NCBI GenBank assembly: GCA_016934535.1 | Contig: JAFGSQ010000006.1 | Span: forward strand, 2,617-66,616 | Source of the DNA: a candidate division WOR-3 bacterium | GTDB lineage: Bacteria > SDB-A | Length of the DNA: 64,000 bases | Direction of reading: 5' to 3' | Shown: one piece after another, positions 9,756 through 32,922 of the stretch | Position numbering within the stretch: the stretch's first letter is position 1 | How the letters are laid out: every line of letters begins with the position of its first letter | Made by a program: the position numbers and the translations under genes | Notes under the pieces: generated by a model | What the model saw: the letters and a program-made list of their open reading frames with translations, nothing else | Databases searched by the model: none | Told to the model about the DNA's origin: nothing

Positions 9756-12700
9756 CTATGAATTCTTCTGCAGTTTACATATTATTTCTTCAGCTCTTTT
9801 CTGACAATCCTCTCCCTTTTCAGCAATTCCCAATGATTTTAAATATGTGCCGTATTTAGACAAAGCCGTCGCATATTCTACCGTATCAAAATCTTTTTTC
9901 ATGTGTTCAAGCGAGTATTCAAAATACGCTTTCGGATCGAGTCCTAAACCGGTCAAAGAGTCTATCTCGTTTTTTAAATCGCAGCACGAATCAAGTTCTG
10001 AAATACAGATTCCCGCGTAATAATAAAGAGGGTAGATTTTTGTCCCGATTTCTTTTTCCAATGAGAGCGCTTCTTTAAGCTTTTCCAGGGCTTTATAATA
10101 ATCTTTTTTCTCTGTTAAAACGTATCCGACGCCGGCTATCCCGGACAAAATGCCCATTTTAAATCCGAGTTCTGAGCACATTTTGATTACGTTATCGTAG
10201 CATTCGGCGGCTTTGTCCCATTTGCCAATCCTTCTGTACAGATCGCCTTTGAAACCCAAAGCGTATCCAAATCCTTTTCTGTCTGCCAGTTCTTCGCAAA
10301 CCTTCTGCTTTTCATTGAAACAATCCAGCGCTTTTTCGTACTCGCCTTTCTCCATATAAATACAGCCCATATTTCCCACGGACAGGCCTATCCCGGATTT
10401 TTCTCCAAGTTCAACCGACATTTTTTTCTTTCTGGCATAATATTCAAAAGCTTTATCGGTGTTCCCCTTTTCCATGTATGCGCCTCCGATGTTTCCTATC
10501 GCGGCGCTCAAAACTCTCTTGTATCCCATTTTTTCGCAAAGATTTTTTGCTTTAGAAAAATAAAACATGGCTTCATCTATTTCCGACTTGTGAAAAAATA
10601 CCGATCCCATGTTCAAGTATGCGACGCTAAGACTGTAAATGTCGTTTTCGCTTTCACAGATTTCAATTTGCTCTTTGTAACAATCAATTGCTTTTTCAAA
10701 CTCGCCTTTGTTCCAATGGATCAAGCCGATGTTTCCTGACACTAAAGAGAGTTTTTTATTATCTTCGCAGGCTTGATGACATTTTTTCTGCTTCTCGTAA
10801 AACCCCATCGCTTTGTCGAATTCTCCTTTGTGGTAATATATCTGTCCGTAAACTCCGAGAAACATTTCTTTTTTGTCTTCTCTTCCATTGACGCCGCAAT
10901 ATGACAGGCCAAGTTCCGCTGTTTCAAGAGCCCTGTCGATTTTTCCCGTGTAAAGATACAATTGCGCAAGCCTGTTCATGGAATCTAAATACGCGCCGGC
11001 ATCAAGTTTATCTTTCACATCTTCTGTCAGGTAAATCAAATCAGACAGCAGTTTCTTCCAATCGCCTGCTAAAAATTCTATTTCTGCTCTGCTGAAAACT
11101 GTGAGTCTTTTCTCGTTTTCGTTATCACTCAATTCAATTATTTTGTTCAGACTCTCTATGGCTTCTCTGTTTCTGTATGCCTTTGACAAATAATCCGAAG
11201 CCACTCTGTAATTTGCGAGCGCTTTTGATCTTTCTTCGGAATAATAATAATGGGAAGCAATTTCGTAACTAAATTCGGGCTTGCCGGTGAACATCTTCTC
11301 AAGAGTATCGGCTGCGGTTCCGTGGATATATTTCAATCTTGATATCAATTGCATTTCGTATACTACGTCTCGGAGAAAATTACTTTTAAAAGCAAATCTC
11401 TTTTCATGAACATCGGTAATCAGGTTCTCTTTCCGGATATCAAGAAGAGTATTTTCGAAATCATCCCTGTCAAATTGGTTTATTTCTCTGGAAACGGAAA
11501 AAAGAATCTCTCTATCAAATTCTTTTCCAAGCACGCTCGCAATCTGAAGCGTTTCTTTGATTTTCAGTGGAAGCCTGTCTATTCTTGCGACAATGACGGA
11601 AGAGATGTTTTCCGGAACATCCGCGACATCCGATTCGAGCGTGTATTCTTCTCTATCTTCCTTCAAAAAGTTGTTTTCTTTGAGATAAAGACAAAACTGA
11701 TCCAGATAAAAAGGATTTCCTTGCGTTTTTTCGAATATCATATCAATCGCTTTTTCAGAGACATTTTTTTTAAGTATGTTCCTTATCATCTCCGTGGATT
11801 CAGTTGGGTCAAGTCCTTTCAGGTTAATCTCCTGGGTCGGCCAACCTTCTTTGCCTATCAAGCGAGGCAGAGATCCGTCATCATTCAGTCTGCTCGCTAT
11901 CACCACGCATATCGGAAAACTTTCGAGCCCTCTCATTAAAACTTCAAAAAACCTGTAAGATTCATCGTCTACCCATTGAAAATCGTCAACAAATAATACC
12001 GCGGGTTTTAGAAGGCTCAATGCCGTCAATAAATATTTAACTGCGAAAAGCGTGTTTTCGTGTCTTTGTTTGGGATCGAGAAATTCATAAACCGAGTTTT
12101 CGGTTGTGTGATTGAGAAGGGCTCCGATAAAATTTTTCCCTCTTTCCAGTTCCTGCAGAATGTCGTCTGCCGAATGTCTTTTCCCGATGGATGCGATCCT
12201 GGCGACAAAAGAATCGAAAATGTCTTCGAAGATGTTACCTTTTAATGAATCGTCTTCGTTACCCAGCTGATTGAAAATGGTTTTCAGGCAGTAAACGATC
12301 GGATTGAACGCCTTTTTCAAAATGGGATCGCAGTTAAAAACCCATGTGTCTGCATCCTTTTTCACATTTTCAGTCATTTTCTTAACGAGAAATGTTTTTC
12401 CGGAGCCTGGTTCTCCCGTGACGTGGATTACGCCTCCGAACTTACCTTCTTTCAGAGAATCGAACGCCCTAATTAAAATTTCAGATTCCGCTTTTCTACC
12501 CACGATTTCAGCGCCTGCATCAGCTCTTTTTCTTTTTTGAAATTTTCCGACAAGCTTGAACGCTGCAGTTAATGTGATTTTCCCTTTCAAACTGACATCG
12601 CCGATAAATTCCATTTCAAATTCTTCGCTGAGTTTAGCGTGAATGTTTTTTGAAACCAGGATTCCTCCTGGTTCGGCTTTTTGCATGAACCTCGAAGCGA

Positions 12701-13742
12701 CAATAACCGCCTCACCGATAAATGAATAGTTACACCTCAAGTCATCACCGATCAATCCCGCGTATACCGTCCCTTTGTTGATTCCAATTTTTGTAGAATC
12801 TGTTTTCAAAGATAAAGCGAATTCAATCGCCCGTTTCTCGTCATTTTCAAAAGATTTTGGAGCACCGAATATCACAAGGAAATTACATCCCTTGTCGCCG
12901 AAATCGAGAGAACTGAAAAAGCCTCCGAATTCCTCGGTCTTTTTGAGTACATCTTCTATATAAGTTTTCAATTCATCGTATTTCTCTTGTCCTTTGAAAG
13001 AAACAAAAACTGCCGTTATCTCCCTGAATTCTCCTCTGTAAGGCATTTCTGTAAGTTCTCGTGAAATAAAACCCGAATACATTTCTCTTGCCAGCTCAAT
13101 TTCAAATGTTTTAATCGCCTCGGCTTTTTGAGGTGTCACTCCGGAATTCACTTTTTTAACGACGAAATATTTTTCTCCGCAGGAAACTGTATCAATACAG
13201 TTTTTATCGAGAACGTCGTAGACGTTTCTGTCTATTACACATTCGGTATGTTTGCACTTTTTTTCGGAATCGGCGCATCCTTCTATCGCATTTCCGCGGA
13301 AATAATAAGTCCTGTTTGAAACAGTTCCAATTGTCCCCCATTCCACTTTACCCCGTGAAATTCCGATTTTCATCGAAAACTCAAAATCGCCAAATTTTGT
13401 ACTCACATGTCCGTTGTCGACGACAAATCCTTTAATGTTTTCAGCGCAAACTAAAACCGCTGAAACAGAGCATTCATTTTCAGGGAATACCGCCGTTATA
13501 CCATCCCCGGCAAAACCTGTCACGAAGCCTCCGCTTTCGTATATCATTCTGGTCACCGGTTTGAATATGGATTCAAGAAGGGTCGAAAGAATTTCCGCTC
13601 CTTCTTTACCGGCTTTCATAAGTTTTTCAGAAATCGAAGTGAATCCTTTTACATCCAAAAACATGGCGGCGGCATTAAATTCACCGAAACAAAGCCCCTC
13701 TTTGTTTTGCCGGACAATAAACCTTGGTATTAAATATTTCAT
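9756..13742 (-). CDS. Multidomain signalling protein: tandem class-III adenylyl/guanylyl cyclase homology domains + P-loop STAND-type ATPase + TPR repeats
   Basis: CHD-1 has the FLDVKGFT and GFAGDGITAVF metal-binding Asp motifs. CHD-2 has VFVSFKG (first Asp lost) and GEAVIVASRF (Arg kept). Walker A GEPGSGKTFLV, then ~600 aa of TPR-like helical repeats. Confidence 0.75.
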   Translation of the reverse strand: MKYLIPRFIVRQNKEGLCFGEFNAAAMFLDVKGFTSISEKLMKAGKEGAEILSTLLESIFKPVTRMIYESGGFVTGFAGDGITAVFPENECSVSAVLVCAENIKGFVVDNGHVSTKFGDFEFSMKIGISRGKVEWGTIGTVSNRTYYFRGNAIEGCADSEKKCKHTECVIDRNVYDVLDKNCIDTVSCGEKYFVVKKVNSGVTPQKAEAIKTFEIELAREMYSGFISRELTEMPYRGEFREITAVFVSFKGQEKYDELKTYIEDVLKKTEEFGGFFSSLDFGDKGCNFLVIFGAPKSFENDEKRAIEFALSLKTDSTKIGINKGTVYAGLIGDDLRCNYSFIGEAVIVASRFMQKAEPGGILVSKNIHAKLSEEFEMEFIGDVSLKGKITLTAAFKLVGKFQKRKRADAGAEIVGRKAESEILIRAFDSLKEGKFGGVIHVTGEPGSGKTFLVKKMTENVKKDADTWVFNCDPILKKAFNPIVYCLKTIFNQLGNEDDSLKGNIFEDIFDSFVARIASIGKRHSADDILQELERGKNFIGALLNHTTENSVYEFLDPKQRHENTLFAVKYLLTALSLLKPAVLFVDDFQWVDDESYRFFEVLMRGLESFPICVVIASRLNDDGSLPRLIGKEGWPTQEINLKGLDPTESTEMIRNILKKNVSEKAIDMIFEKTQGNPFYLDQFCLYLKENNFLKEDREEYTLESDVADVPENISSVIVARIDRLPLKIKETLQIASVLGKEFDREILFSVSREINQFDRDDFENTLLDIRKENLITDVHEKRFAFKSNFLRDVVYEMQLISRLKYIHGTAADTLEKMFTGKPEFSYEIASHYYYSEERSKALANYRVASDYLSKAYRNREAIESLNKIIELSDNENEKRLTVFSRAEIEFLAGDWKKLLSDLIYLTEDVKDKLDAGAYLDSMNRLAQLYLYTGKIDRALETAELGLSYCGVNGREDKKEMFLGVYGQIYYHKGEFDKAMGFYEKQKKCHQACEDNKKLSLVSGNIGLIHWNKGEFEKAIDCYKEQIEICESENDIYSLSVAYLNMGSVFFHKSEIDEAMFYFSKAKNLCEKMGYKRVLSAAIGNIGGAYMEKGNTDKAFEYYARKKKMSVELGEKSGIGLSVGNMGCIYMEKGEYEKALDCFNEKQKVCEELADRKGFGYALGFKGDLYRRIGKWDKAAECYDNVIKMCSELGFKMGILSGIAGVGYVLTEKKDYYKALEKLKEALSLEKEIGTKIYPLYYYAGICISELDSCCDLKNEIDSLTGLGLDPKAYFEYSLEHMKKDFDTVEYATALSKYGTYLKSLGIAEKGEDCQKRAEEIICKLQKNS

Positions 13743-18655: not shown

Positions 18656-18778
18656 GTTGCCTCCTGCGGAAAATGATTTAAAGTAATGATAATACAAACG
18701 CATAAAAAAATAACAGTTTTTTTTGTTTAATGAGCGCATTTGAAATGCCAGTAAAACAATTAAATTGAGAGGCTAATA

Positions 18779-19406: not shown

Positions 19407-20525
19407 CTATATTGTTTTTCTAAACCTCAGAATCGCCCCGTATAGAAATATTAAACCCAAGACAGTCAAAGATGCAAAATTCGGCCAAAGGACCTGTAAA
19501 GAACTGCCTTTTAAAAACAATCCCCGCAGAATAACTATCATATACTTGAGAGGATTTAAATAAGTCAAATACTGAATCCACACGGGCATGTTAGACACCG
19601 GAAAAATGAACCCCGAAAGAAGGAGAGCCGGTATTACGAAAAAGAATGTGCTGAGCATCGCCTGTTGCTGAGTTGAGCAAAGAGTCGATATCAGCAACCC
19701 GACTCCAAGAGTGCTCAGCAAAAAAAGCGAATTGGCAAAAAACAGCAAAAGCAAATTACCTCTGAACGGTATCTTAAACCAGAATATTGCCACTGTTGTC
19801 ACTAAAATCACATCTATCATGCCAATTATTGCGAATGGAAAAGTTTTTCCGACAATGAATTCAAATTTACTTATAGGCGTCACTAATATCTGTTCTATGG
19901 TTCCCATTTCTTTTTCTCTGACAATGGACATACCTGACAGCATCAATGTTATTATCATTACCATGGCGGCAATGACTCCCGGTAAATAAAAATTTTTACT
20001 ATGAAGATTCGGATTGAAAAGAATTCTTTCTGAAAGTTTTACCTGCTTTACGTTCACTGAATTGAGATCCAATCCTCTGAGAACAGTCTCTTTGTTGAAT
20101 TTCGAAATAATATCGCTGGCATAACCCAGGACTGTCCCGGCTTTCATTGCATTTGATCCGTCGACTATGATCTGAACGGAAATTTCGAAATTTTTGCTGG
20201 CGGTTTTGCAGAATTCCGGGGATATTATCAATCCGAAATCCGCTTCTCCGCAGTCAATCATTTGCACTGCGTAATCATAATTGTCTCCTGTGCCGGAAAG
20301 CCTGAAGTGATCTGTGGACATGAATGCGTTCACGAACTTTCTGCTCAGAGAACTTTTATCTCCATCGACGATTACCGTTCCTATGTTTTTCACGTCTGTA
20401 GTCACTGCGTAACCAAAAAGAAATGTCTGGATTATTGGTACTAAAAGTATGACGGTCCTCATTCGGGGATCCCGAAAAGCCTGAATAAATTCCTTTTTCA
20501 GCATGTGCTTTATTCTGTTAAGCAA
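19407..20525 (-). CDS. ABC-2 family transporter permease
   Basis: 372 aa with an N-terminal cytoplasmic/periplasmic loop then 6 TM helices. YbhS/YbhR-like. Confidence 0.8.
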   Translation of the reverse strand: MLNRIKHMLKKEFIQAFRDPRMRTVILLVPIIQTFLFGYAVTTDVKNIGTVIVDGDKSSLSRKFVNAFMSTDHFRLSGTGDNYDYAVQMIDCGEADFGLIISPEFCKTASKNFEISVQIIVDGSNAMKAGTVLGYASDIISKFNKETVLRGLDLNSVNVKQVKLSERILFNPNLHSKNFYLPGVIAAMVMIITLMLSGMSIVREKEMGTIEQILVTPISKFEFIVGKTFPFAIIGMIDVILVTTVAIFWFKIPFRGNLLLLFFANSLFLLSTLGVGLLISTLCSTQQQAMLSTFFFVIPALLLSGFIFPVSNMPVWIQYLTYLNPLKYMIVILRGLFLKGSSLQVLWPNFASLTVLGLIFLYGAILRFRKTI

Positions 20526-20535
20526 TTTTTACGCC

Positions 20536-21645
20536 CTACATTTTTAGACGGAAACTTTTAACCGCCACCGCAAGAGACAGGAATGCATATACAATCATAA
20601 AAATAAACTCAATCCACAGAGTAGTAATACTTCCGCCTTTTAAAAAAACTGCTTTGATTATTGATATAAAATATTTTGCCGGAACAAAATGGCTTATCAG
20701 ACGCACTGGCAAAGGCATGTTGGAAACATCATACACGAATCCCGAAAGAAGAAACGCTGGAAGAAATGTTGAAACCAATGACAATTGACATGCCAAAAGC
20801 TGGTTTTTTGTTACTATGCTTATAGTCATTCCCATCATGAAGGCTCCGAAAAGAAAAAGAATACTGGAAAATGAAAAAAACAAAAAGTCTCCCTTTATCG
20901 GAATACCGAATATGAATTTTGCCGCCAATACAGCTACGACTACATCAAAGATTCCTATTAATAAATACGGTGTCAGTTTTCCTACAATTATTTCCAGTGA
21001 TTTCACAGGTGTCGAAATAAGAAGCTCCAAAGATCCATTTTCCCATTCTCTTGCCACGGTCAGAGAAGTGAGCATTGCCGCGATAATCATAATTATAACC
21101 GCCAGCAAACCCGGTATAACTCCTATACGGGTTGAGAGTTCCGGATTATAAAGAATTTTTACAGAGACACCCTGATTTGCTGCGTTTATTAATTTAAAGT
21201 AATCAGCCATAAGTACTGTTCTGTTGAATACTTCAGTTGCGTTTTTGGCATAATTTAGAGATATCCTCGCGAAATAAGCGTCCGATCCGTCTAAAATCAG
21301 CTGAATTTCAGGAGAATCGGCTCCAGAAAAATTCTCAGGAATGATAATTGCCGCCCGAATCATGTTTCTGTCCATAAGATTCATCAACTGGCTATAACTA
21401 TCCGCGTTCGACACGACTTTAAAAGTTCCTGAAGCCGTCATACCAGCCAAAAACGCTCGGCTCATACTTGATGAACTCCTGTCATATACTCCAAGTGGAA
21501 TATTTTTGACATCAAGCGATAGAGCGAAACCAAAAAACACAAGAAGAAGCAAAGGAATTGCTATCCCCATACCCAGACTTCTCGAATCCCTAATGACGTG
21601 AATAATTTCCTTCCGAGCCAGGGCAAACACTCTTCTATTATTCAT
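20536..21645 (-). CDS. ABC-2 family transporter permease (paralog)
   Basis: 369 aa with the same architecture as the adjacent permease. Confidence 0.8.
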   Translation of the reverse strand: MNNRRVFALARKEIIHVIRDSRSLGMGIAIPLLLLVFFGFALSLDVKNIPLGVYDRSSSSMSRAFLAGMTASGTFKVVSNADSYSQLMNLMDRNMIRAAIIIPENFSGADSPEIQLILDGSDAYFARISLNYAKNATEVFNRTVLMADYFKLINAANQGVSVKILYNPELSTRIGVIPGLLAVIIMIIAAMLTSLTVAREWENGSLELLISTPVKSLEIIVGKLTPYLLIGIFDVVVAVLAAKFIFGIPIKGDFLFFSFSSILFLFGAFMMGMTISIVTKNQLLACQLSLVSTFLPAFLLSGFVYDVSNMPLPVRLISHFVPAKYFISIIKAVFLKGGSITTLWIEFIFMIVYAFLSLAVAVKSFRLKM

Positions 21646-21648
21646 GCT

Positions 21649-22578
21649 TTAACTATCCGTAACTCTTATAAAAACATCTTCAAGTGATGGAACTATTGTT
21701 TTCACCAGGCTGAAGCTGTAATTTCTGCTTTTAAGCAATGATTCGATTTTGGATTTGTCAACTTTTTCTTTCAAAACAAGTTTCAAAATATTTTTATGAA
21801 TCAATCCTTCCAGAATAAATCCAGTCTTTTTAAGCTCTTCAAGAACTGAATTCGGATCACAGCATCTGATTTCTATCATCGGTTCGGGTGATATCATTTT
21901 TTTAAGTTCATCCGGACTTCCTATGGCTTTTATTGATCCGCGGTCAATCAGAGCCAGCTTGTGACAATACTCGGCTTCCTGCATATAATGCGTAGTAACA
22001 AATACAGTGACGCCGCTGTCTGAAAGTTCATAAATCAGTTTCCAAAAATTTCTTCTCGTGACAGGATCAACTCCGGATGTCGGCTCATCCAAAAAAAGTA
22101 TGGACGGATTGTGTACCACTGCACAACCCAGGGCCAGTCTTTGTTTCCAGCCCAAGGAAAGTGTTTTAGTAAGCCGGTTTTCCTTTCCTGTTAAACCTGC
22201 CATATCGAGTATCCATCTCTTTCTCATTTTTAATAAATTGTTTTTTACTCCGTATATTCCGCCGTAGAAATCTATGTTTTCTGAAATCTTCAGGTCTTCG
22301 TATAAAGAAAATTTTTGACTCATGTATCCGGTTATTTTTTTTACATCGTCAGGATGTTTCAAAATATCTATACCGTCCACGATGCAATCTCCAGAAGTAG
22401 GTTTAATTAGACCGCATAACATTTTTATTGTCGTTGTTTTACCGGCCCCGTTCGGTCCCAAAAAACCAAAAATTTCAGCCCTTTCTACATTCATGCTTAT
22501 ATAGTCGACGGCAGTGAAACCACCAAACTTTTTCAACACCTGACGGAGAATCACAGAATATTTACGATCGTCAGGCAT
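21649..22578 (-). CDS. ABC transporter ATP-binding protein
   Basis: Walker A GPNGAGKTT, signature LSLGWKQRL, Walker B LFLDEPTSGVD. Confidence 0.85.
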   Translation of the reverse strand: MPDDRKYSVILRQVLKKFGGFTAVDYISMNVERAEIFGFLGPNGAGKTTTIKMLCGLIKPTSGDCIVDGIDILKHPDDVKKITGYMSQKFSLYEDLKISENIDFYGGIYGVKNNLLKMRKRWILDMAGLTGKENRLTKTLSLGWKQRLALGCAVVHNPSILFLDEPTSGVDPVTRRNFWKLIYELSDSGVTVFVTTHYMQEAEYCHKLALIDRGSIKAIGSPDELKKMISPEPMIEIRCCDPNSVLEELKKTGFILEGLIHKNILKLVLKEKVDKSKIESLLKSRNYSFSLVKTIVPSLEDVFIRVTDS

Positions 22579-23500
22579 GCAAACCTTTCATCATGCTGAT
22601 GAAGACGTCTTCCAAACCGGGTTCAACGGGATATGTCTCATAATAATCGGAATTTTTTCTTTCAAGAACATCGGTAATAAATGAGACGTCGACGTTATTT
22701 TTAAATGTTAAGACGTTTACAAAATCCCCGTAAACAAATACGTCCGAGACTTCATTTATGCCGTCGAAGCATCTGGCGATCTCACCAGGTTTTTTACACA
22801 CTATTTTTATTATTTTTCCTGTAAACATCCCTTTTATGCTGTCCGGAGTTCCCTGAGCGATTATTTTTCCGTTGAAAATCAAAGATATGCTGTCGCATTT
22901 TTCGGCTTCGTCTATGTATGAAGTTGAAATGAATACAGATGTTCCTTCTTTAGTCACTCCGGAAAGTATTTTCCAGAATTCCATTCTAGAAACCGGATCA
23001 ACGCCGTTTGTCGGTTCGTCGAGAAATATAATTTGAGGTTTGTGAATCAAAGCACAGATCAGCGAGAGTTTTTGTTTCATTCCCCCTGAAAGATGTCCCG
23101 CTTTTCTTTTGACAAACTCCGACAAATTATACATTTCCAGAAATTTTGAAGATTTTTGTCTGCATTCTTTCCTGTCAACCTCGTAAATATCTGCATAAAA
23201 TTTTATGTTTTCCTCAACAGTTAGATCTCTGTACAAACCGAAGTTCTGACTAACGTAACCGATTTTATTTTTGATTTTTTCCGGATTGTTTGAAGGATTT
23301 AATCCTAATATTTCAACCACTCCGGAAGAAGGATTCATTACTGTTGACAATATTCTTATGAGAGTGGATTTTCCAGATCCGTCAGGACCGATCAATCCGT
23401 ATATTTCATTGCTTTTTACACTTAGAGAAATACAATCAATGGCTCTGACTTTCCCGAAATCCTTTGTAACTTTTTCGACTCTGATAATATCTTCATGCAT
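22571..23500 (-). CDS. ABC transporter ATP-binding protein (second, separate ATPase)
   Basis: Walker A GPDGSGKST, signature LSGGMKQKL, Walker B IFLDEPTNGVD. Overlaps the next ATPase gene by 8 nt. Confidence 0.85.
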   Translation of the reverse strand: MHEDIIRVEKVTKDFGKVRAIDCISLSVKSNEIYGLIGPDGSGKSTLIRILSTVMNPSSGVVEILGLNPSNNPEKIKNKIGYVSQNFGLYRDLTVEENIKFYADIYEVDRKECRQKSSKFLEMYNLSEFVKRKAGHLSGGMKQKLSLICALIHKPQIIFLDEPTNGVDPVSRMEFWKILSGVTKEGTSVFISTSYIDEAEKCDSISLIFNGKIIAQGTPDSIKGMFTGKIIKIVCKKPGEIARCFDGINEVSDVFVYGDFVNVLTFKNNVDVSFITDVLERKNSDYYETYPVEPGLEDVFISMMKGLHA

Positions 23501-23504
23501 CTCA

Positions 23505-24470
23505 TTAATATATTATTTCAATTGTCACCGGCATACCTGATTTAAGGGACTCATCACAATTCGGAACAAGTGCGTTAATTTCATAGACTAAACCGGCTCT
23601 GACATCTTCAGTATAAACAACAGAAGGTGAAAATTCTGCTTCGTTTGAGATGTTCAGAATTTTTCCCTCGAAAATGTTGTCTTCATCAGAACCAAAAAAG
23701 ATCGATACTTTCTGATTCAACCTGATGTTTCCGAGCTGATCTTCACTAATCCAAAAATTTACAATCACAGTATCCAACATACTTATCCGCGCAACTTCTT
23801 TCCCGGCCGCAACAATTTCCCCGCTTGCATAATTCAATTCTTCGACTACACCTTTTACAGGTGAAATTAAATATGTTCTGTCAACTTGAAGCTGGGCAAG
23901 TTCCAGGGACTTCTCGGCGGCGATTACTTTTTCAATCGCAATTTCAATATCTTCAACCCTGTTTCCTTCGTTTGCCAAAGAAAATTCCTGGAATGAAGCG
24001 CTGGTTTGTGCCTCTGCAATCTGGAATTCAGCCAATGCTTTGTCATAATCCTGCCGCGGCACATTTCCTTCTTCATAAAGAGCCTCTATGCGTAAAAGAT
24101 TTTCTTTAATCAATTCAAGTCTTGTCTGATTTTGTTTAAGAACATAATATGTTCTGCTGATTTCCTGGTTTCTCAGACCGGCTTGCAGTTTTTCCAAAGA
24201 CGCCCGCGCACCCGACAATTCTGCCAGCCTTAAGTCTCTGTTCAGTTCGAATTCTATCCTCTCTAATTCGGCAATAGTGTCGCCTGTTTCAATTTGTTCA
24301 CCCTCTTTAAAATTCACTTTGGAAATTCTTCCGCCGACAAGAAAAGCAAGCCTCAATTCGTCGGCCTCGACGAATCCGTAACATTTGATTTTTTGGATTT
24401 TATTTTGTTCACAGTCAGTTAAACTGACAAGACAAAAAAATAATATAATTTTTGATGATACATGTTTCAT
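23505..24470 (-). CDS. HlyD-family membrane-fusion / periplasmic adaptor protein
   Basis: 321 aa. N-terminal signal/anchor, long coiled-coil region and a C-terminal beta-barrel segment typical of HlyD/YbhG. First gene of a YbhGFSR-like operon. Confidence 0.8.
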   Translation of the reverse strand: MKHVSSKIILFFCLVSLTDCEQNKIQKIKCYGFVEADELRLAFLVGGRISKVNFKEGEQIETGDTIAELERIEFELNRDLRLAELSGARASLEKLQAGLRNQEISRTYYVLKQNQTRLELIKENLLRIEALYEEGNVPRQDYDKALAEFQIAEAQTSASFQEFSLANEGNRVEDIEIAIEKVIAAEKSLELAQLQVDRTYLISPVKGVVEELNYASGEIVAAGKEVARISMLDTVIVNFWISEDQLGNIRLNQKVSIFFGSDEDNIFEGKILNISNEAEFSPSVVYTEDVRAGLVYEINALVPNCDESLKSGMPVTIEIIY

Positions 24471-24567: not shown

Positions 24568-24686
24568 CAAGTGTTTGGAATATTAAAAAATTTTACTTAG
24601 TTTACTTATTGTCCAATAATGTTAAAATTGATACAAGGTGATTTTTGACCAAAGGAGAACGGCGTTTTAAGTAGCAGGGAATAATT

Positions 24687-27600
24687 ATGAAAAACAACAC
24701 GCCATCTTTTATACATGAACGCTTCAAATCCTCTCAGCAATACGGCGTATTTCCTTGTTCCGCAGTGACTATTAATCTTTCCGGTCTTCCCGGAATCATT
24801 GAAAAACTGAAAGATTATAAAAGCGAGGGTTTTACCGAATTCACGGCAAACATTACCAAAATTTACACGCCAATAATCGAGACCATATATCGCCACAGCG
24901 GATTTGTATGTAAATTTTTCAGCGACCAGTTTATAGCCGTTTTCCCACATGAAAATCCGTCCCCTTCAGCAGACAATGCAATTTTTTGCAGTCTCAGTAT
25001 ACTTAAAAAAATGAAAGATCTTGCCAGAATCAAAACTCCATTCGGAGATTACTTTATTTTTTGTAAAATCGGCATCGGAACTGGAAACGCCGATTGGGGA
25101 ATTTTCGGAAAAAAGGAAAAAAATTATTATTTTAAAGGCGACTCGTTCATAAAGTCCTACATGTCGATTTCCGCCGGAGCTCTGAACCGCGTGACACTCG
25201 ACGAATCCACGGTAAAATTGATTACTGACGAAAACATCAAGGCTTCGCTTTTCAGGCAGAAAAATTTCTTTTACGCTGAAAACGTAGATTCAGCTTTGAT
25301 GTCAACGGAATTCACTGATCCAAAATACACGGAAGTAAATGACGAAAGCTTTACTCGAACGGACCTATCAAAACTCCAGGACGGTGATTTCAGCCAGATC
25401 ACATCGCTTCTGACTTCTTTTGACGACAGAGCGTTTGACAACGAAGAAGAATTGATCGATTTTCTTTCATTCGTCTTCGAAAACTCCCGTAAAGACGGTT
25501 TGCTTTTCGGCGGACTTATACATTTCAAACCCAACCCTCACTTGACGTTCTATTTTGAATCAGAAGATGCGCAAAATATTGAAAACGCAGTAAAATCAAT
25601 TTTCCTGGCTGAAAAAGAATTTAAAATTTCAACTCGGACCGTAATGACGAGAGGTATCTCTTACGTTGGCTTCCTCGACACACAATATTATAAAGATTTC
25701 GTTTGTATTAGCCGTTCAATAAACACAGCAGAAATGATTTTGACTCAAACAACTGAAAAAGGAATTTTGATAACAGAAGAGATAAACGAGAAAATTAAAG
25801 ATTCGGTAAATACTCTGCCTCATTCTTCGTTCGTCGAAAAAGGATCCATCAAAGAAACGAGGATTTTCAAGGTTGTCAATAAAAAGACTACCGAACCCGC
25901 AAAAGGGCTTTTTAAAGAGAGGATCGTTTACGGAGAAAAATGTCTAAAGTTCGTAAAACCGTTTCTTGAAAAAAATTTTCCTGGAATAATTTATATTTAC
26001 GGCGACCAGGGCTCCGGAAAAACATTTTTTGCAAACGAGCTTTCAAAAAAATTGAAATCTTCAGTTTTTCTTCTTCACGGAAACCCAATTTTCAACGAAT
26101 CTTTGAAGCCGTTCAAGGATTTTTTCAATGATTTTTTTTTCAAAGAAGAAAGCGCTCAGGACAAGAAAGAAGCGTTCATCCAGAAATACGAAATATTTTT
26201 AAAAAAATGTCAATCATCGACTTCTGAAGGAAATGTTGTTTTAAATGAAGAATTGATAAGAACTCCGACGATTATTGCAGCTTTGACCGGTTTGGAGTGG
26301 GAAAACTCTGTTTACAACAGCGTAGAACAGTGTAATAGGTTTGAAAACTCGGTTTTTGCCATTAAAAATTTTATGCTCTCTGTCGCTTTTATGAATCCTT
26401 TAATTTTAATACTGGATGATTTTCAATACTTTGACCAGGATTCATTGAGCGTCATCCAGGTACTGACGCGCGATATCGCGAACCGTCAACTTCTCATTAT
26501 AGCAACCGCCCGATGTGAAAAAGGTTCTGAAAAACCGAAACTGCTTCTCGACGAAGATGTCCCAAGTCTCGAAATCGAACTTGCAAAAACTTCTATTCAA
26601 GCTCTCGAAGGATTTATAGTATCCTTTCTCGGAGAAGATTCGCCAGACAAATTAATAAACAAAATTACGACTCTTTCTTCCGGAAACCCCTACTTAGCCG
26701 AACAACTGTGTCTTTTGGCAGTGGAAGCACAGGAACAGAAAGAGGAACTGTATTCAAAATTACAAAGCAAAATAAATGAGATTGCAGCCAAAAGAGTTGA
26801 CTTTTGGGAGGAAAAATTACGTGACTCTGTCATTTTCTGTGCGATTTTAGGTAATCATTTCGACAAAAAATCACTCACAGCTTCAAATCCATCGAAAATC
26901 GAAGATTCAAAACTAATCAACTTTTATGACTCTCTCCTGGATGAAGGAGTAAAAAAACAGATTTGGACAATTTCGGCGCCCACCCACATATTTTTTAGAA
27001 ATGAAGAACTCAGAAAATCCATAGTCCAAAACTTGAGCGAAGAAAAAAGAACGACCTTACACCTTGAAGCGGCTAAAGTCCTTGAAACTCTGTTTGGAGA
27101 TGATAAAACACGATTCACTGAAATCGCCTTTCATTTTCAAAGAGGCGGAGACATCGTCAAGGCGGTTAAATACTATATCGATTCCGCCGAATGGTCTTTC
27201 TTTAATTACAGACTTGAAGAATCCGTTGGCCTCTTGAGGACGGCTTATGAGATAGAGAAAGATTTGACAAAAAAATTCGAAATATTATTGAAAATGTTCT
27301 CTGTTCAGAAAGAAATGAAAATTTTTCAGATAGACGAAATACTATACGGACAGGCGGATGAATATTTCCGCTCTGAGAATGACACACCATCTTCCGTAAA
27401 ATTGCTATATTACAGGGCTCATTCTTTTCTCAAGGAAGACGATAAAGACAGAGCTCTCGAGTATATTGAACAGGCGAAAAATCTTGCCGAAGAAAATAAT
27501 CAAACCGAACTTCTGCCTGAAATTTACAAATTTTTTGTTCCTATGCTCATAGAAACACGCAGATTCGAAAAGGCGGAAAAAAGCCTCGATTCTTTCGAAA

Positions 27601-28412
27601 AACTTCCGGAAAAAACCGTCGAACCGCACCTTGGAGACATTATTTCATTCAAAGGGACAATCTTGATGAATAAAGGGAAATTTGACCAGGCACTTGAAGT
27701 GTTCGACAAGGCGGTCACAATTTTTGAAAACAATAAAAATCTGTCCGGTATGGCACCTGTTCTCGACAATGTATCAAAGATATATTTCAAAAAAGGTAAA
27801 GCCGGAAAAGCTTTGGAATACAGTATAAAGTCGCTAAACGTCGGCAAAGAGATAGGTTCATACAAGACCATGGTAATAAATCTGCACAACATAGGCGGAG
27901 TCTTCATGAAGGCGAGAGATTTCAACAAGGCCGTAAAATTTCTCGAACAATCCCAGCGTTTGTCCCGCGAGCTGAAAAACTACAAACTTGAATCTTACGT
28001 CCTCGACAAACTTGGAGACATAGAAAGAGCGAGAGGCTACATGGCAGAGGCTATGTCTTTTTACGAAAGGTCTCTTGAAAACCGTTTAAAACTGGGTGAC
28101 TTGATTGCCGCTGGAAAATCGTTTAAATTCATCGGCGACGTTCTCAGCAGTCAGAACAACTTTGATAAAGCCAAAGAATATTACGTAAAAAGCATGTCGT
28201 ATTTTAAGAAAGCCGATGACAGGAAATCATTGGCCGAATCAATAGAAAGCTTCGGAACAAACGAGTTTAAAAAAGACAAACAAAACAAATTCAAGACTCT
28301 CAAATGCTTGGAACACGCATGGAACATATACGAGAGCCTTAGCGACTACGACAGACTGACCAACCTCGAAAAACTTATAAACCAGGTCACGTGGGAAGGC
28401 ATAGACATCTGA
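24687..28412 (+). CDS. Paralogous multidomain protein: two degenerate cyclase-homology-like domains + P-loop STAND ATPase + TPR repeats
   Basis: Same overall architecture as 9756..13742. Walker A GDQGSGKTFF. The cyclase-like regions lack the FxDxxGFT Asp (VTINLSGLPG) and have degenerate N/R motifs, so they are probably non-catalytic. C-terminal TPR array. Confidence 0.7.
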   Translation: MKNNTPSFIHERFKSSQQYGVFPCSAVTINLSGLPGIIEKLKDYKSEGFTEFTANITKIYTPIIETIYRHSGFVCKFFSDQFIAVFPHENPSPSADNAIFCSLSILKKMKDLARIKTPFGDYFIFCKIGIGTGNADWGIFGKKEKNYYFKGDSFIKSYMSISAGALNRVTLDESTVKLITDENIKASLFRQKNFFYAENVDSALMSTEFTDPKYTEVNDESFTRTDLSKLQDGDFSQITSLLTSFDDRAFDNEEELIDFLSFVFENSRKDGLLFGGLIHFKPNPHLTFYFESEDAQNIENAVKSIFLAEKEFKISTRTVMTRGISYVGFLDTQYYKDFVCISRSINTAEMILTQTTEKGILITEEINEKIKDSVNTLPHSSFVEKGSIKETRIFKVVNKKTTEPAKGLFKERIVYGEKCLKFVKPFLEKNFPGIIYIYGDQGSGKTFFANELSKKLKSSVFLLHGNPIFNESLKPFKDFFNDFFFKEESAQDKKEAFIQKYEIFLKKCQSSTSEGNVVLNEELIRTPTIIAALTGLEWENSVYNSVEQCNRFENSVFAIKNFMLSVAFMNPLILILDDFQYFDQDSLSVIQVLTRDIANRQLLIIATARCEKGSEKPKLLLDEDVPSLEIELAKTSIQALEGFIVSFLGEDSPDKLINKITTLSSGNPYLAEQLCLLAVEAQEQKEELYSKLQSKINEIAAKRVDFWEEKLRDSVIFCAILGNHFDKKSLTASNPSKIEDSKLINFYDSLLDEGVKKQIWTISAPTHIFFRNEELRKSIVQNLSEEKRTTLHLEAAKVLETLFGDDKTRFTEIAFHFQRGGDIVKAVKYYIDSAEWSFFNYRLEESVGLLRTAYEIEKDLTKKFEILLKMFSVQKEMKIFQIDEILYGQADEYFRSENDTPSSVKLLYYRAHSFLKEDDKDRALEYIEQAKNLAEENNQTELLPEIYKFFVPMLIETRRFEKAEKSLDSFEKLPEKTVEPHLGDIISFKGTILMNKGKFDQALEVFDKAVTIFENNKNLSGMAPVLDNVSKIYFKKGKAGKALEYSIKSLNVGKEIGSYKTMVINLHNIGGVFMKARDFNKAVKFLEQSQRLSRELKNYKLESYVLDKLGDIERARGYMAEAMSFYERSLENRLKLGDLIAAGKSFKFIGDVLSSQNNFDKAKEYYVKSMSYFKKADDRKSLAESIESFGTNEFKKDKQNKFKTLKCLEHAWNIYESLSDYDRLTNLEKLINQVTWEGIDI

Positions 28413-28557: not shown

Positions 28558-28698
28558 TTAATTATTTTTCTCTTCTTTTTCACAGCATCCTTTTTTCTCG
28601 CAGGGATGCTTGGAATTTTCGCCGTGGCATTCTTTTATCTGTTCTTTTGAGCATTCTCCGGGTTTGACATCTTTTTCGCAGTGTTTTTTCTTACACAT
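28558..28698 (-). CDS. Unannotated 46-aa Cys-rich (7 Cys) peptide, possibly a metallothionein-like metal-binding peptide
   Basis: Translation: MCKKKHCEKDVKPGECSKEQIKECHGENSKHPCEKKGCCEKEEKNN. RBS AAGGAG 6 nt upstream. It lies downstream of arsR on the same strand and is followed by a strong terminator. It overlaps the 3' end of the arsR ORF by ~64 nt in another frame. Confidence 0.3.
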   Translation of the reverse strand: MCKKKHCEKDVKPGECSKEQIKECHGENSKHPCEKKGCCEKEEKNN

Positions 28699-28982
28699 CT
28701 GTGGCTCCTTTTTTGGGTTTTCAATAAATAGTCATGATACTCTTTTAAAAAAATTTCCACCTGTTCTTTTTCGACTGAATAATGCGCGAAATACCCGGTT
28801 TTTATCGCTTTCACGAAACCGGCTTCCCTCAATATTTTCAGGTGCTGAGAAACAGCGGATTCGGATATTCCGGTGATTTTTGAAACGGCTTTTCCGCAGA
28901 GATTTCCCGAAGATATCAGCGACATTATTTTAGCTCTCGTAGGGTCTAACAAAGCCCTTATTTTCTTTTCTTCAATTTTCAT
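28635..28982 (-). CDS. arsR: ArsR/SmtB-family metalloregulatory transcriptional repressor
   Basis: wHTH core AVSKITGISESAVSQHLKILREAGFV. Length ~115 aa with a Lys-rich C-terminal tail. Confidence 0.8.
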   Translation of the reverse strand: MKIEEKKIRALLDPTRAKIMSLISSGNLCGKAVSKITGISESAVSQHLKILREAGFVKAIKTGYFAHYSVEKEQVEIFLKEYHDYLLKTQKRSHRCVRKNTAKKMSNPENAQKNR

Positions 28983-29115
28983 AATTAAGTGATGACTGAA
29001 TTAATTTAGTGTTAACTTTATATGTATTTCACTGTTTTGTCAAAAGAATATTATTGTTTATAGATTCTATTATCTAAAGTCGCTTCAAAACAGAACATCT
29101 ATTATGAAAAATCTA

Positions 29116-29147
29116 TTAAAAAGCAAAAGCGCGGCTTAGGCCGCGCT
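29116..29147 (-). terminator. Rho-independent terminator (minus strand) downstream of the Lys-rich small ORF
   Basis: GC-rich stem AGCGCGGC-ttag-GCCGCGCT, followed on the minus strand by TTTTGCTTTTT. Confidence 0.5.
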
Positions 29148-29198
29148 CCCATGTATTTATCTTTTTGAATTTTCTGTTAGAAACCATTACATGGCAGT

Positions 29199-29303
29199 CT
29201 ATTTTTTCTTTTTATCGCTCGTACCGCTTTTTCCCTTTCCGCAGGGTTTCTTTTTCGTTCCATCCATCTTTTTCCCTTTACCGCTTCCAGCTGTCTTTGC
29301 CAT
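29199..29303 (-). CDS. Unannotated 34-aa Lys/Gly-rich basic peptide
   Basis: Translation: MAKTAGSGKGKKMDGTKKKPCGKGKSGTSDKKKK. GGAGGA RBS 4-5 nt upstream of the ATG, an AT-rich promoter region and its own terminator. The ORF-track entry 29177..29401 is a different frame of the same DNA. Confidence 0.35.
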   Translation of the reverse strand: MAKTAGSGKGKKMDGTKKKPCGKGKSGTSDKKKK

Positions 29304-29572
29304 GAGTCCTCCTCTTTTAGGTGATATAACCACCATCTTGTGACTCGAAATATATATAACCCTACATATAGTAATGTATTACAAAAAATAATTATAGTCA
29401 AGTAAATTTATTTTCAAATATGATTGTCTTTATATGTCATTACAAAAATATAACTTTATTTTTAACAAAAAATCGAAAACAATTCAGAGCATCCAAAATT
29501 TTACTAAAGCGTATTTATAAATTTTTAACATTTATTTTTTAAACTTATATTGAAATTAAAAAGGAGAAAATA

Positions 29573-30004
29573 GTGAAAAAAGTTCTGTTCGTCTGCGTTC
29601 ACAATTCGGCAAGAAGCCAGATTGCAGAAGAGCTTCTTAAAAAATTCGCGCCGGACATGTTTGAAGCGGAAAGCGCCGGCTTGGAACCCGGTGAAATAAA
29701 TCCTTACGTCGTTGAAATATTAAAAGAAGAAGGTATTGACGTTACGAAAAAAAAGACGAACAGCGTGTTTGCTTTTTTTAAACAAGGAAAAAAATACAAC
29801 TATGTAGTGACAGTCTGCAGTGAAACCGAGGGAGAAAAATGTCCGCTTTTCCCCGGGGTGTCAGAAAGGCTTCATTGGAGTTTCGAGGATCCTTCGGCTT
29901 TTAAAGGGAATCACGAGGATGTTATTAATTTGGTCAGAAGTCTCAAAGACAAAATAAAAGAATCCATATTGAAATTTATCAAAGATCATGGAGACGAAGC
30001 CTGA
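29573..30004 (+). CDS. arsC: Arsenate reductase, low-molecular-weight phosphatase family (thioredoxin-coupled)
   Basis: N-terminal P-loop CVHNSARSQ (CX5R); conserved downstream Cys (VTVCSE...KCP); 143 aa. RBS AAGGAG. Confidence 0.85.
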   Translation: MKKVLFVCVHNSARSQIAEELLKKFAPDMFEAESAGLEPGEINPYVVEILKEEGIDVTKKKTNSVFAFFKQGKKYNYVVTVCSETEGEKCPLFPGVSERLHWSFEDPSAFKGNHEDVINLVRSLKDKIKESILKFIKDHGDEA

Positions 30005-30732: not shown

Positions 30733-32922
30733 ATGTTTTCCCTATTTTTCCTCCTGTTCTTCTCATTTACAAACCAAATCCAGGAAAGACAGATGCTGGT
30801 CAGAATTTTTGTAGACGACTACAGAATTTTAAGGACTATAGACGAAAAAGGACTCGATATAGCCGGAAGAGAGTACGGCGAATACTGGGACATAGTCGTC
30901 ACGCCGCAAAAATTCAATTCTGTAATCGCGTCCGGTTTGCCGTACGAGATTGTTTCCCAAAACATCGAAGGTTTGAAAGATCAGGTCAGGGGTCAATATC
31001 ACAGCTACGATCAGGTCGTCGCTATTATGCGAAACTACGCTTCGACATATTCGTCTATCTGTAAACTCGATTCGATAGGAAAAAGTTACGAAAACAGATG
31101 GATTTACGCCCTTAAAATATCAGACAATCCTTCGTACGAAGATCCCGACGAACCGGGGATCCTCTTCGACGCGCTCCATCACTCAAGAGAATGGGCGACA
31201 ATTGAGGTCGTTCTTTTCTACGCCGACACCCTCTGCAGGGGATACAACAACGACCCCGTATTGACTTCTCTCATCAACGACAACGAAATATGGCTTATTC
31301 CGATGGTCAACGTCGACGGTTATGTCTATGACTACCCCGGTCAGGAATGGTGGAGAAAGACGAGAAAACCTTTCGGCGGATCAACCGGAACAGACCCGAA
31401 CAGAAACTATCAAGGTTGTTTCATGGGCGATCCCTTCGGCGACTGGGGAGCCATACCTCCGGACGCTTCGATGTCCCATTACCCCAGCCAGGAGACTTTC
31501 TGCGGAGCATACAGCGGATGGTCTGAAGAAATTTCAGCAATGGTAAATTTTCACAAAACTCACGAAATAAACGCGAACATAACTTACCACAGCTACGCCC
31601 AGGAAATCCTGTGGCCATGGGGACACACGAGCACCGTGCTTCCTCCCGACAACACGGCAATCGTAAATATAGCCAACCAGATGGCTTCAAGAATTCAAAA
31701 GGTCAACGGAGGAAATTACGTAGCCTCATCGAGTCTTTATCCTACTTCGGGCTCTACAGATGATTTCGTTTACGGATATCATTACTTCATCCATGGTTTT
31801 CCCTGTTTTTCCTACACAATTGAAGTCGGAACTGCATTCTACCAGAACGTCAACAATCTCGATCAGATAGCCCACGAAAACTGGGAAGGAGCGCTTTATT
31901 TCGCCCAACAGGCGGCGACCATACGGCAGAATTATCCATCGAGAGTTCCGTCTTCTGATATATCTGCTCCCGACACAGCAGTTTCAAATTCCTGCCTCAT
32001 AACATGGGCTCCTGTCTTCGCCACTTATAACACTCCCGATCTATGGCAGTTGGACAGGCTTTCAGGCTATTCGTTTACATCTGACGGTATTGAATCCGGA
32101 ACCGCGAACTGGATTCTCTCGGGTTTCACTCAGAGCACTGCTAGAAAACACGCTGGAACCTACAGTCTTTATTCAGGTTCACAGAACAACATCGCCAACA
32201 CCGCACAGACGAGATATCCATACATCGTCCAGCCCAACGACACTTTCTCGTTCTGGTGCTGGAACTACTCCGAGAACAATTATGACGTCACTATTGTGGA
32301 AATCTCGGAAGACGGACTGGCCTGGAATCAGCTCGACACGAGGTACACAGGAAGCCAGCAGACCTGGACTCAGAAAAAATACTCCCTTGCCCCGTGGCAG
32401 GGAAAAGCAGTTTACTTCAGGTTCAGAACCATAACTGACGACGGAACACTGAACGAGAATTTCTATGTTGATGACATATCGCCTGTCGCTCATTTCAATC
32501 AAATCGAGGTTCTGGACAGCATAATCTGTGACACTTTTTATACGGCGACAAGCCTTCCTCTAGGTGAAAGTTATTTCCGAGTCCGCGGCCACAATACGAG
32601 AGGCTGGGGCAATTATTCCAACACGGGTAAAACGATCATCGTTCAGGGAAACTCTGTGGAAGAACCGGTCCAGGTTTTTGCCGGAAATATTTCCGTATTC
32701 AACAATTCCAAAAACATCGAGATAAGATACAGTTTACCCTCCGGTCAGGATATGAGCGTGAACATTTTCGACGTAACGGGAAGACAGGTAGGCAATTACA
32801 GATATCAGAACCTTTCCGGCGACGACAGAATTCAGATATCACCCGCGTCGGAAGGCGTTTTATTCGTTCACGTCAATTCAGGTGAAATAAACATTACAGA
32901 GAAAGTGCTTATAATAAGATAA
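30733..32922 (+). CDS. Secreted M14-family zinc carboxypeptidase with T9SS C-terminal sorting domain
   Basis: Signal peptide. M14 motifs HSREW, NVDGYVY and HSYAQ. The C-terminus IFDVTGRQV...GVLFVHVNSGEINITEKVLIIR is a T9SS CTD. Confidence 0.8.
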   Translation: MFSLFFLLFFSFTNQIQERQMLVRIFVDDYRILRTIDEKGLDIAGREYGEYWDIVVTPQKFNSVIASGLPYEIVSQNIEGLKDQVRGQYHSYDQVVAIMRNYASTYSSICKLDSIGKSYENRWIYALKISDNPSYEDPDEPGILFDALHHSREWATIEVVLFYADTLCRGYNNDPVLTSLINDNEIWLIPMVNVDGYVYDYPGQEWWRKTRKPFGGSTGTDPNRNYQGCFMGDPFGDWGAIPPDASMSHYPSQETFCGAYSGWSEEISAMVNFHKTHEINANITYHSYAQEILWPWGHTSTVLPPDNTAIVNIANQMASRIQKVNGGNYVASSSLYPTSGSTDDFVYGYHYFIHGFPCFSYTIEVGTAFYQNVNNLDQIAHENWEGALYFAQQAATIRQNYPSRVPSSDISAPDTAVSNSCLITWAPVFATYNTPDLWQLDRLSGYSFTSDGIESGTANWILSGFTQSTARKHAGTYSLYSGSQNNIANTAQTRYPYIVQPNDTFSFWCWNYSENNYDVTIVEISEDGLAWNQLDTRYTGSQQTWTQKKYSLAPWQGKAVYFRFRTITDDGTLNENFYVDDISPVAHFNQIEVLDSIICDTFYTATSLPLGESYFRVRGHNTRGWGNYSNTGKTIIVQGNSVEEPVQVFAGNISVFNNSKNIEIRYSLPSGQDMSVNIFDVTGRQVGNYRYQNLSGDDRIQISPASEGVLFVHVNSGEINITEKVLIIR

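Follow-up and report, generated by a model that had tools for sequence, protein, structure and literature searches.

Among the closest described systems to the protein studied here is mammalian soluble adenylyl cyclase (sAC, ADCY10), in which two cyclase homology domains, C1 and C2, are arranged in tandem in one chain and form a pseudo-heterodimer with one active site. In full-length sAC, C2 is followed by a putative STAND-type NTPase region (PMC6023465, citing Leipe et al. 2004). A literature search for bacterial sAC-like STAND cyclases or pseudo-cyclases yielded little that was directly relevant. A gene encoding a protein of this kind was analyzed in an uncultured candidate division WOR-3 bacterium represented by a metagenome-assembled genome. 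It is located on a stretch of 64,000 nucleotides, hereafter the window (contig JAFGSQ010000006.1, positions 2,617 to 66,616 of the forward strand, assembly GCA_016934535.1). The product of this gene, hereafter the target, is 100% identical to MBN2362638.1 of candidate division WOR-3, and both the target and its orthologs carry no label other than "AAA family ATPase". Sequence comparison and structure prediction suggest that the target probably lacks catalytic activity and represents a pseudo-cyclase within a bacterial sAC-like family, whose members combine a tandem C1-C2 pair with a STAND ATPase and a TPR array. The domains and motifs of the target, together with a second family member of the window termed paralog 1, are located as follows.

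24687..28412, + strand: whole target gene, 1241 amino acids, with a predicted pseudo-cyclase pair (C1-C2), STAND NTPase and TPR array
24741..25286, + strand: C1-like cyclase homology domain, residues ~19-200 (ortholog profile against sAC; predicted local distance difference test, pLDDT, >90 in this part of the model)
25392..25886, + strand: C2-like cyclase homology domain, residues ~236-400 (weak sequence matches to CyaB, CyaC and sAC C2; Foldseek)
25914..26786, + strand: STAND nucleotide-binding oligomerisation module (AAA_16 and motifs)
26001-26024, + strand: Walker A, GDQGSGKT, residues 439-446
26403-26426, + strand: Walker B, ILILDDFQ, residues 573-580
27327..28409, + strand: TPR array, presumed sensor or partner-binding domain (Pfam TPR families)
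9756..13742, - strand: paralog 1, 1328 amino acids, with sAC-type C1-C2, STAND and TPR regions (Pfam Guanylate_cyc 1.8e-19, two stretches)

The target sequence alone showed only weak matches to class III cyclases, e.g. to CyaB with an E-value of 0.009, and no match to Guanylate_cyc (PF00211) was detected with Pfam in the target at E <= 0.1, nor in any of its four orthologs. A profile of five sequences, comprising the target and these orthologs (P0001-P0004, 92-53% identical), matched human sAC at E 1.2e-8, with residues 22-171 aligned to sAC 39-189, and a second, weak stretch placed residues 296-351 on sAC 361-417. A family profile of 61 sequences covers sAC 39-468 in one stretch (E 1.6e-53). 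The AlphaFold model of residues 1-410 has a mean pLDDT of 89 and a predicted template modelling (pTM) score of 0.89. When this model was submitted to Foldseek, the top 24 matches were all human sAC structures (best E 7.5e-23, template modelling score 0.72-0.77, both halves), followed by the C1-C2 pairs of membrane cyclases. Model and Foldseek matches thus agree on a cyclase homology fold of the dimeric or pseudo-dimeric kind, and the N-terminal 400 residues of the target are predicted to keep the sAC-type tandem C1-C2 pseudo-heterodimer fold. The initial annotation of the locus had described these regions as cyclase-like, and both the sAC profile and the structural matches bear this out.

Residues 1-400 of the target align end to end with proteins of 1200-1450 amino acids, and the whole protein is colinear with paralog 1 from end to end (BLASTP E 4e-81, 23% identity), as shown by the pairwise alignment that had been proposed for the two paralogs. 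In Pfam, AAA_16 was matched at residues 432-605 (38.0 bits, cut-off 32.6), and TPR_12, TPR_2, TPR_8 and TPR_1 exceeded their cut-offs at approximately residues 900-1180, while TPR_MalT scored below its cut-off (38.3 vs 45). Matches to MalT and AfsR were confined to the TPR part and lay far under the cut-offs. A TAR sensor motif is located at residue 607 and a GNP motif at residue 666; both of these, as well as Walker A and Walker B, align with their counterparts in paralog 1. At the level of motifs the target therewith presents the features of a STAND NTPase, namely Walker A and B, an AAA_16 module, a sensor arginine, GxP and C-terminal repeats. The open reading frame with Walker A and TPR array was thus described correctly from the outset. 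The target contains the components of the sAC-type architecture in colinear order, i.e. two cyclase domains followed by a P-loop NTPase and helical repeats. Since its N-terminus resembles the sAC-type pair and full-length sAC harbors a putative STAND-type NTPase, the whole target follows an sAC-like plan.

The target was also analyzed for the residues that form the active site of sAC. The roles of these residues were taken from Table 1 of PMC12867704, and their equivalents were identified in a MAFFT alignment of sAC fragments, both paralog clades and 76 relatives, to which 142 more representative relatives were then added. Three of these sites are located as follows.

24765..24794, + strand: degenerate FxDxxGFT motif, VTINLSGLPG, residues 27-36
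24924..24926, + strand: codon of Asp80, the second metal Asp (sAC D99), kept and invariant in the five orthologs
25710..25736, + strand: C2 alpha4 motif SRSINTAEM, with Asn346 and Met350

The first metal-binding aspartate, D47 of sAC, is replaced by Asn30 in the target (codon 24774-24776). Among the five orthologs this position is occupied by asparagine in four and histidine in one, whereas it is an aspartate in the paralog 1 clade and in all relatives of both sets (71/71 and 142/142). Judged from this alignment, the loss of the D47 equivalent is unique to the target clade among 213 relatives. The second metal aspartate is present in all relatives and in the paralog 1 clade as well. The position of K144, which contacts the pyrophosphate, is Lys127 in the target, lysine or arginine in its clade and in the relatives, and lysine in the paralog 1 clade. 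At the position of N412, which is involved in ribose binding and product release, Asn346 is invariant in the target clade; 57/64 and 132/135 relatives share this asparagine, while the paralog 1 clade has isoleucine or threonine. R416, which binds the alpha-phosphate, corresponds to Met350 (methionine in four members of the target clade, phenylalanine in one), whereas arginine is found in 59/63 and 127/134 relatives and in the paralog 1 clade. The base-recognition residues are also altered. K334 is equivalent to Gly276 in the target, with arginine or lysine in most relatives and serine or alanine in the paralog 1 clade. T405 is equivalent to Val339 (valine or isoleucine in the clade), with threonine in most relatives and serine in the paralog 1 clade. 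The C2 placement of the K334 and T405 equivalents is an alignment of moderate confidence. In addition, the FDKG sequence of the C2 beta2/3 loop is changed to FKPNP. The secondary structure of the model fits these placements, as Asn30 is positioned near the end of a strand (19-32) and before a helix (34-69), Asp80 within a hairpin (78-81), and Asn346 and Met350 on one helix (343-354). Three of the five catalytic-residue features of class III cyclases that were tested are lacking in the target, in addition to the missing PF00211 match.

These replacements suggest that the single active site is broken, with the first metal Asp, the alpha-phosphate Arg and both base-recognition residues gone. The alignment to class III cyclases therefore shows related N-terminal regions whose catalytic residues are not intact, and the earlier proposal of catalytically dead domains with a lost FxDxxGFT aspartate is supported. 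Of the asparagine and arginine transition-state residues, which were both reported as missing, only the arginine is lost and the asparagine is kept. Because an invariant SFDDRAF motif occurs in C2, a swap of roles was considered, in which C2 would provide the pair of metal aspartates and C1 the asparagine and arginine. This was ruled out, as the position of sAC D339 is occupied by lysine, serine or arginine and alpha4 of C1 contains neither asparagine nor arginine.

The second, pseudo-symmetric (regulatory) site of the pair contains residues that are invariant in the target clade and not in the wider family: Lys76 (24912-24914), Tyr158 (25158-25160) and SFD[DE]R[AV]F at the end of C2 beta1 (SFDDRAF, residues 244-250, 25416-25436). 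Lys76 corresponds to K95 and Tyr158 to R176, both of which bind bicarbonate in sAC. Most relatives harbor threonine, glycine, asparagine or serine at the former position and alanine at the latter; the paralog 1 clade has glycine, and alanine or valine, respectively. Most bacterial relatives lack both bicarbonate-site residues, and this site is not defining for the bacterial family. In the target clade the pseudo-symmetric site may form a ligand pocket.

The main rival to the pseudoenzyme reading is residual or altered catalysis, i.e. that the target has remained active as a nucleotidyl cyclase or related transferase and uses a non-canonical metal ligand (Asn30, or histidine in one ortholog) and a remodelled pocket, perhaps with a substrate other than adenine nucleotides. 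Several points speak for it or weigh against a pseudoenzyme. An asparagine or histidine could still ligate a metal ion, and residual or altered chemistry is possible with the second metal Asp (Asp80), the asparagine (Asn346), the pyrophosphate lysine (Lys127) and an SG(F/L)(T/P) phosphate loop all kept. Purifying selection acts strongly on both cyclase domains. A single substitution need not abolish activity, as salmon sAC carries an arginine in place of Asn412 and is nevertheless active (PMC12867704). A call of inactivity that is derived from the wrong substrate is also a known trap: PDB entry 6YII was first described as a "class III adenylyl cyclase-like ATP-binding protein" on deposition, but today it is regarded as PaPycC, a clade A Pycsar pyrimidine cyclase (PMC11224242). 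For the same reason 6YII was rejected as a precedent for an inactive sAC-like protein. Further reservations apply to the data themselves. The C2 alignment is weak in sequence (7.4 bits) and leans on the multiple alignment and predicted secondary structure, and the target clade is defined by only five sequences from three or four lineages. Nucleotide binding by the target and its interaction with paralog 1 are steps that we infer, and paralog 1 itself deviates from the family consensus. Nevertheless, the first metal aspartate is present in 213/213 relatives and gone only in the target clade, the equivalents of R416, K334 and T405 are simultaneously hydrophobic or glycine, and the C2 beta2/3 loop is altered. 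In class III cyclases, mutation of either metal aspartate is known to abolish nearly all activity. An enzymatically active target is thus considered unlikely.

For the pseudoenzyme, a mode of action can be proposed by analogy to other STAND switches. A ligand or partner bound to the TPR array would release autoinhibition, ATP at the intact P-loop would drive oligomerisation, and the N-terminal cyclase module would be the output of the switch. Because the phosphate-binding loop, Lys127, Asp80 and Asn346 are kept, this module would most likely bind a nucleotide, or dock onto a partner, without cyclising. In this way the target would modulate signalling by catalytically equipped family members encoded nearby, a step that is much less certain than the pseudoenzyme core.

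The ratio of nonsynonymous to synonymous substitution rates (dN/dS) was determined according to Nei-Gojobori in two independent close pairs, namely the window vs L005 and L004 vs L002. The values were 0.097 and 0.17 for C1, 0.092 and 0.07 for C2, 0.15 and 0.12 for the STAND ATPase module, and 0.085 and 0.06 for the TPR region, respectively. Every domain of the target, including the dead cyclase pair, is under purifying selection, which implies that the dead domains still do something. Within the protein, conservation is highest at the TPR end, which shares 68% identity with the P0002 ortholog vs 50% in the N-terminal region. This may point to a partner that is conserved and not to a ligand that varies. 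The long stem branch of the target clade and its lost catalytic residues might also be expected of a decaying, functionless duplicate, and weak PADLOC matches to PycC and TPR could point to a part of an anti-phage STAND or Pycsar-like defence. Both possibilities are highly improbable, as dN/dS is 0.07-0.17 in every domain and the open reading frame is intact in 5/5 orthologs. Furthermore, the PADLOC matches reflect generic domain homology (TPR, and a weak PycC-domain match with E 2.8e-5 and no stretch passing), and the neighbourhood is a stable one of housekeeping or secreted-protein genes with no defence island.

A HMMER scan of 1.84 billion representatives recovered the target clade as one 50%-identity cluster with 699 bits, and the next match had 158 bits. 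In total 4274 representatives matched at E <= 1e-3, and most of the best matches are full-length proteins of 1200-1450 amino acids. In a neighbour-joining tree the target clade was recovered in 100/100 bootstraps; its stem measures 0.85 substitutions per site and that of the paralog 1 clade 0.32. The two clades formed an exclusive group in 0/100 bootstraps, and other family members scored higher against the target than paralog 1 (377 vs 280 bits). These two results rule out a recent tandem duplication of paralog 1, and the target represents an old, fast-diverged lineage. A scan of GTDB species genomes retrieved two loci only, both in lineages already sampled, and a look-up of P0020 for a wider phylogenetic profile found nothing. 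The context of P0014 is an unrelated integrase/ParA region. The target clade is restricted to a few WOR-3 lineages.

In the window, paralog 1 (-) is followed by genes for Fpg (-), EF-G (+), an FMN reductase (-), a protein with a type IX secretion system (T9SS) tail (-) and DUF6144 (+), then by two ABC-2 permeases, two ABC ATPases and HlyD (all -) and by the target (+). Downstream of the target are located genes for ArsR (-), a low-molecular-weight phosphatase, a CAAX protease and an M14 peptidase. Two features adjoin the target on its upstream side.

19407..24470, - strand: exporter operon with HlyD, two ABC ATPase genes and two ABC-2 permease genes (Pfam, NCBIfam)
24601..24628, + strand: promoter-like motif of the target, TTTACT, 16-nt spacer, TG-TAAAAT (extended -10), from a sigma-70-type scan, function inferred

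The exporter operon resembles YbhGFSR, but two separate genes encode the tandem ATPase. It was previously proposed that the target and paralog 1 bracket this operon in divergent orientation. This holds for the target, which adjoins HlyD divergently across a gap of 216 bp. Paralog 1, on the other hand, is separated from the far end of the operon by 5.7 kb with five unrelated genes and is encoded on the operon's own strand. The arrangement beside HlyD, which is found in the window and in a 92%-identical lineage with the same gene order including the operon, could indicate that the target is a regulator or sensor-scaffold of the exporter, as the initial annotation had suggested. However, in the 58%-identical P0002 lineage (L004 and the longer L010) and in the 53%-identical P0004 lineage (L001), the ortholog comes immediately after DUF6144 and the ABC operon is absent (sites compared: L001:9278-10001, L004:5499-6417, L010:9083-10001). 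Synteny in L001, L004 and L010 rules out co-conservation with the exporter; in phylogenetic profiling the neighbourhood of the pair was kept, whereas the operon was missing in two of three ortholog lineages. The operon represents a lineage-specific insertion of ~5.1 kb between DUF6144 and the putative target promoter. The promoter-like motif is kept regardless of the operon: a block TTTAC[T/A]TATTG[T/A]CCAATAATG[T/C]TAAAAT is located upstream of 5/5 orthologs, operon-less lineages included, and this block, TTTACTTATTGTCCAATAATGTTAAAAT, was kept though the intergenic DNA around it has diverged. In addition, no helix-turn-helix (HTH) or other DNA-binding family was detected in the target with Pfam and NCBIfam. 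Thus a role of the target in regulating the exporter is very unlikely. The target appears to be independent of the operon both evolutionarily and, provided that the promoter-like motif functions as such, transcriptionally; the exporter link that gave the locus the look of a system is not real.

Other genes of the neighbourhood showed further features. The ArsR-family regulator (-) and the low-molecular-weight phosphatase or ArsC-like gene (+) at 28635-30004 of the window are syntenic in all lineages and may form an arsenate-response pair unrelated to the target. Secreted proteins with type IX secretion C-terminal sorting or C25/M14 peptidase domains are encoded at 17540-18739 (-), 30733-32922 (+) and 7296-9536 (-), which is consistent with the FCB group (WOR-3). 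The L010 contig (CAYNIW010000021.1) contains a gap of 100 N with a duplicated segment inside the target ortholog at ~10114-10216, which is an assembly artefact. This contig is labelled "uncultured Desulfuromonadaceae bacterium", but its gene order and a 99.9%-identical protein match the WOR-3 locus, so that the bin is probably mislabelled or contaminated.

Paralog 1 orthologs (L001:1511-5482, - strand; L010:839-4825, - strand) are still located beside EF-G in both operon-less lineages. As EF-G of the three lineages is only 80-83% identical, the neighbourhood of the two STAND genes has survived substantial divergence. Residues 1-411 of paralog 1 match C1 (21-191) and C2 (234-359) of human sAC with E 4e-22. 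Paralog 1 keeps the equivalents of D47, D99, K144 and R416, while that of N412 is isoleucine and that of K334 is serine. Since salmon sAC is active with an arginine at the Asn412 position, paralog 1 may still work, perhaps with altered kinetics or specificity, but a plain designation as the active partner is not justified. Paralog 1 may likewise be unusual in its activity or substrate, as its clade harbors isoleucine or threonine at the N412 position and serine or alanine at the K334 position, whereas 132/135 relatives keep the asparagine.

The target might form one half of a dedicated pair with paralog 1, in which the dead-cyclase STAND protein hetero-oligomerises with a cyclase-competent one and sets its output, comparable to the sensor/helper pairs of STAND/NLR proteins. 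In agreement with this, the neighbourhood that contains both genes, made up of paralog 1, EF-G, the T9SS-tail gene, DUF6144 and the target, is conserved in three diverged lineages, and the two proteins share the domain plan and intact ATPase motifs. However, the genes between them are unrelated and on mixed strands, and the linkage may be mere inherited synteny. The two clades are not sisters in the tree, other family members outscore paralog 1 against the target, one lineage has a third family member at the locus, and paralog 1 itself lacks the equivalents of Asn412 and Lys334. The active/inactive enzyme pair that had been suggested for the two paralogs is thus supported by the conserved neighbourhood, but neither by the residues of paralog 1 nor by the tree, and a dedicated pair is rather improbable. 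A more specific version is likewise doubtful. In it the role of the dead-cyclase STAND protein would be to sense a ligand, perhaps via the remodelled pseudo-symmetric pocket (Lys76, Tyr158, SFD[DE]R[AV]F) or the highly conserved TPR array, to co-assemble with the cyclase-competent paralog and to gate its cyclic-nucleotide output. If true, such a paired-STAND module would constitute the prokaryotic counterpart to sensor/helper NLR pairs and would provide a model for the STAND/TPR half of mammalian sAC, which is still unexplained; the finding would gain interest if the two neighbouring STAND proteins work as a pair.

The P0002 lineage contains a third gene of the cyclase family (FVDAKGFT, NFAGDA; Guanylate_cyc 5e-7), which starts directly downstream of the paralog 1 ortholog (L010:2-832, - strand), a place that is occupied in the window by a C25 (gingipain-like) peptidase gene (7296-9536, - strand). 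At a distance of 2.5 kb downstream from its target ortholog, the P0004 genome encodes a further AAA_16 and TPR protein of 834 amino acids that lacks any cyclase region (L001:16282-18786, - strand). STAND-TPR proteins thus appear expanded in these genomes.

Several known systems resemble the predicted pseudo-cyclase in part. Cyclase, AAA_16/STAND ATPase and helical repeats are also combined in the TOMM system kinase/cyclase fusion (TIGR03903), which the target matches over positions 593-911 with E 1.9e-12 and paralog 1 with 1.3e-44; the scores of 45.9 and 152 bits, respectively, lie far under the family cut-off of 705.75 bits. Mycobacterial Rv0386-type proteins are cyclase-ATPase-HTH proteins. 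Unlike both of these, the target contains no kinase domain and no LuxR-type HTH, and its cyclase region is a tandem pair instead of a single domain. PaPycC (6YII) shares the two-lobed cyclase fold (Foldseek E 3.3e-10) and lacks a STAND or TPR region. A class III cyclase-like fold that is kept for a non-enzymatic role has been described in AdvA of Acinetobacter baumannii (PMC13060281). However, AdvA, a cell-division protein anchored in the membrane, contains a single cyclase-like domain without detectable sequence similarity to cyclases, whereas the target clearly belongs to an enzymatic family by its sequence and has a STAND/TPR context.

Mammalian sAC is the best PDB match of the target by profile and by fold (template modelling score 0.75-0.77), and the bicarbonate-binding Lys95 has its equivalent in Lys76. 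In contrast to sAC, the target harbors asparagine for D47, methionine for R416, glycine for K334, valine for T405 and tyrosine for R176; sequence identity is only 13-15%, and judged from these residues no activity is expected. A naturally dead, yet maintained member beside equipped relatives would allow a clean test of whether the cyclase module serves a function other than catalysis, for example in nucleotide sensing or as a scaffold in STAND oligomers. The bacterial sAC-like cyclase-STAND-TPR proteins, including paralog 1, have the same domain order as the target, are colinear with it over ~1200-1450 amino acids and share Walker A, Walker B and GNP. They differ in that D47 and D99 are present in 100% and N412 and R416 in ~95% of them, and only the target clade has lost D47. 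The target is thus a pseudoenzyme variant, as predicted from its residues, within a known and widespread family.

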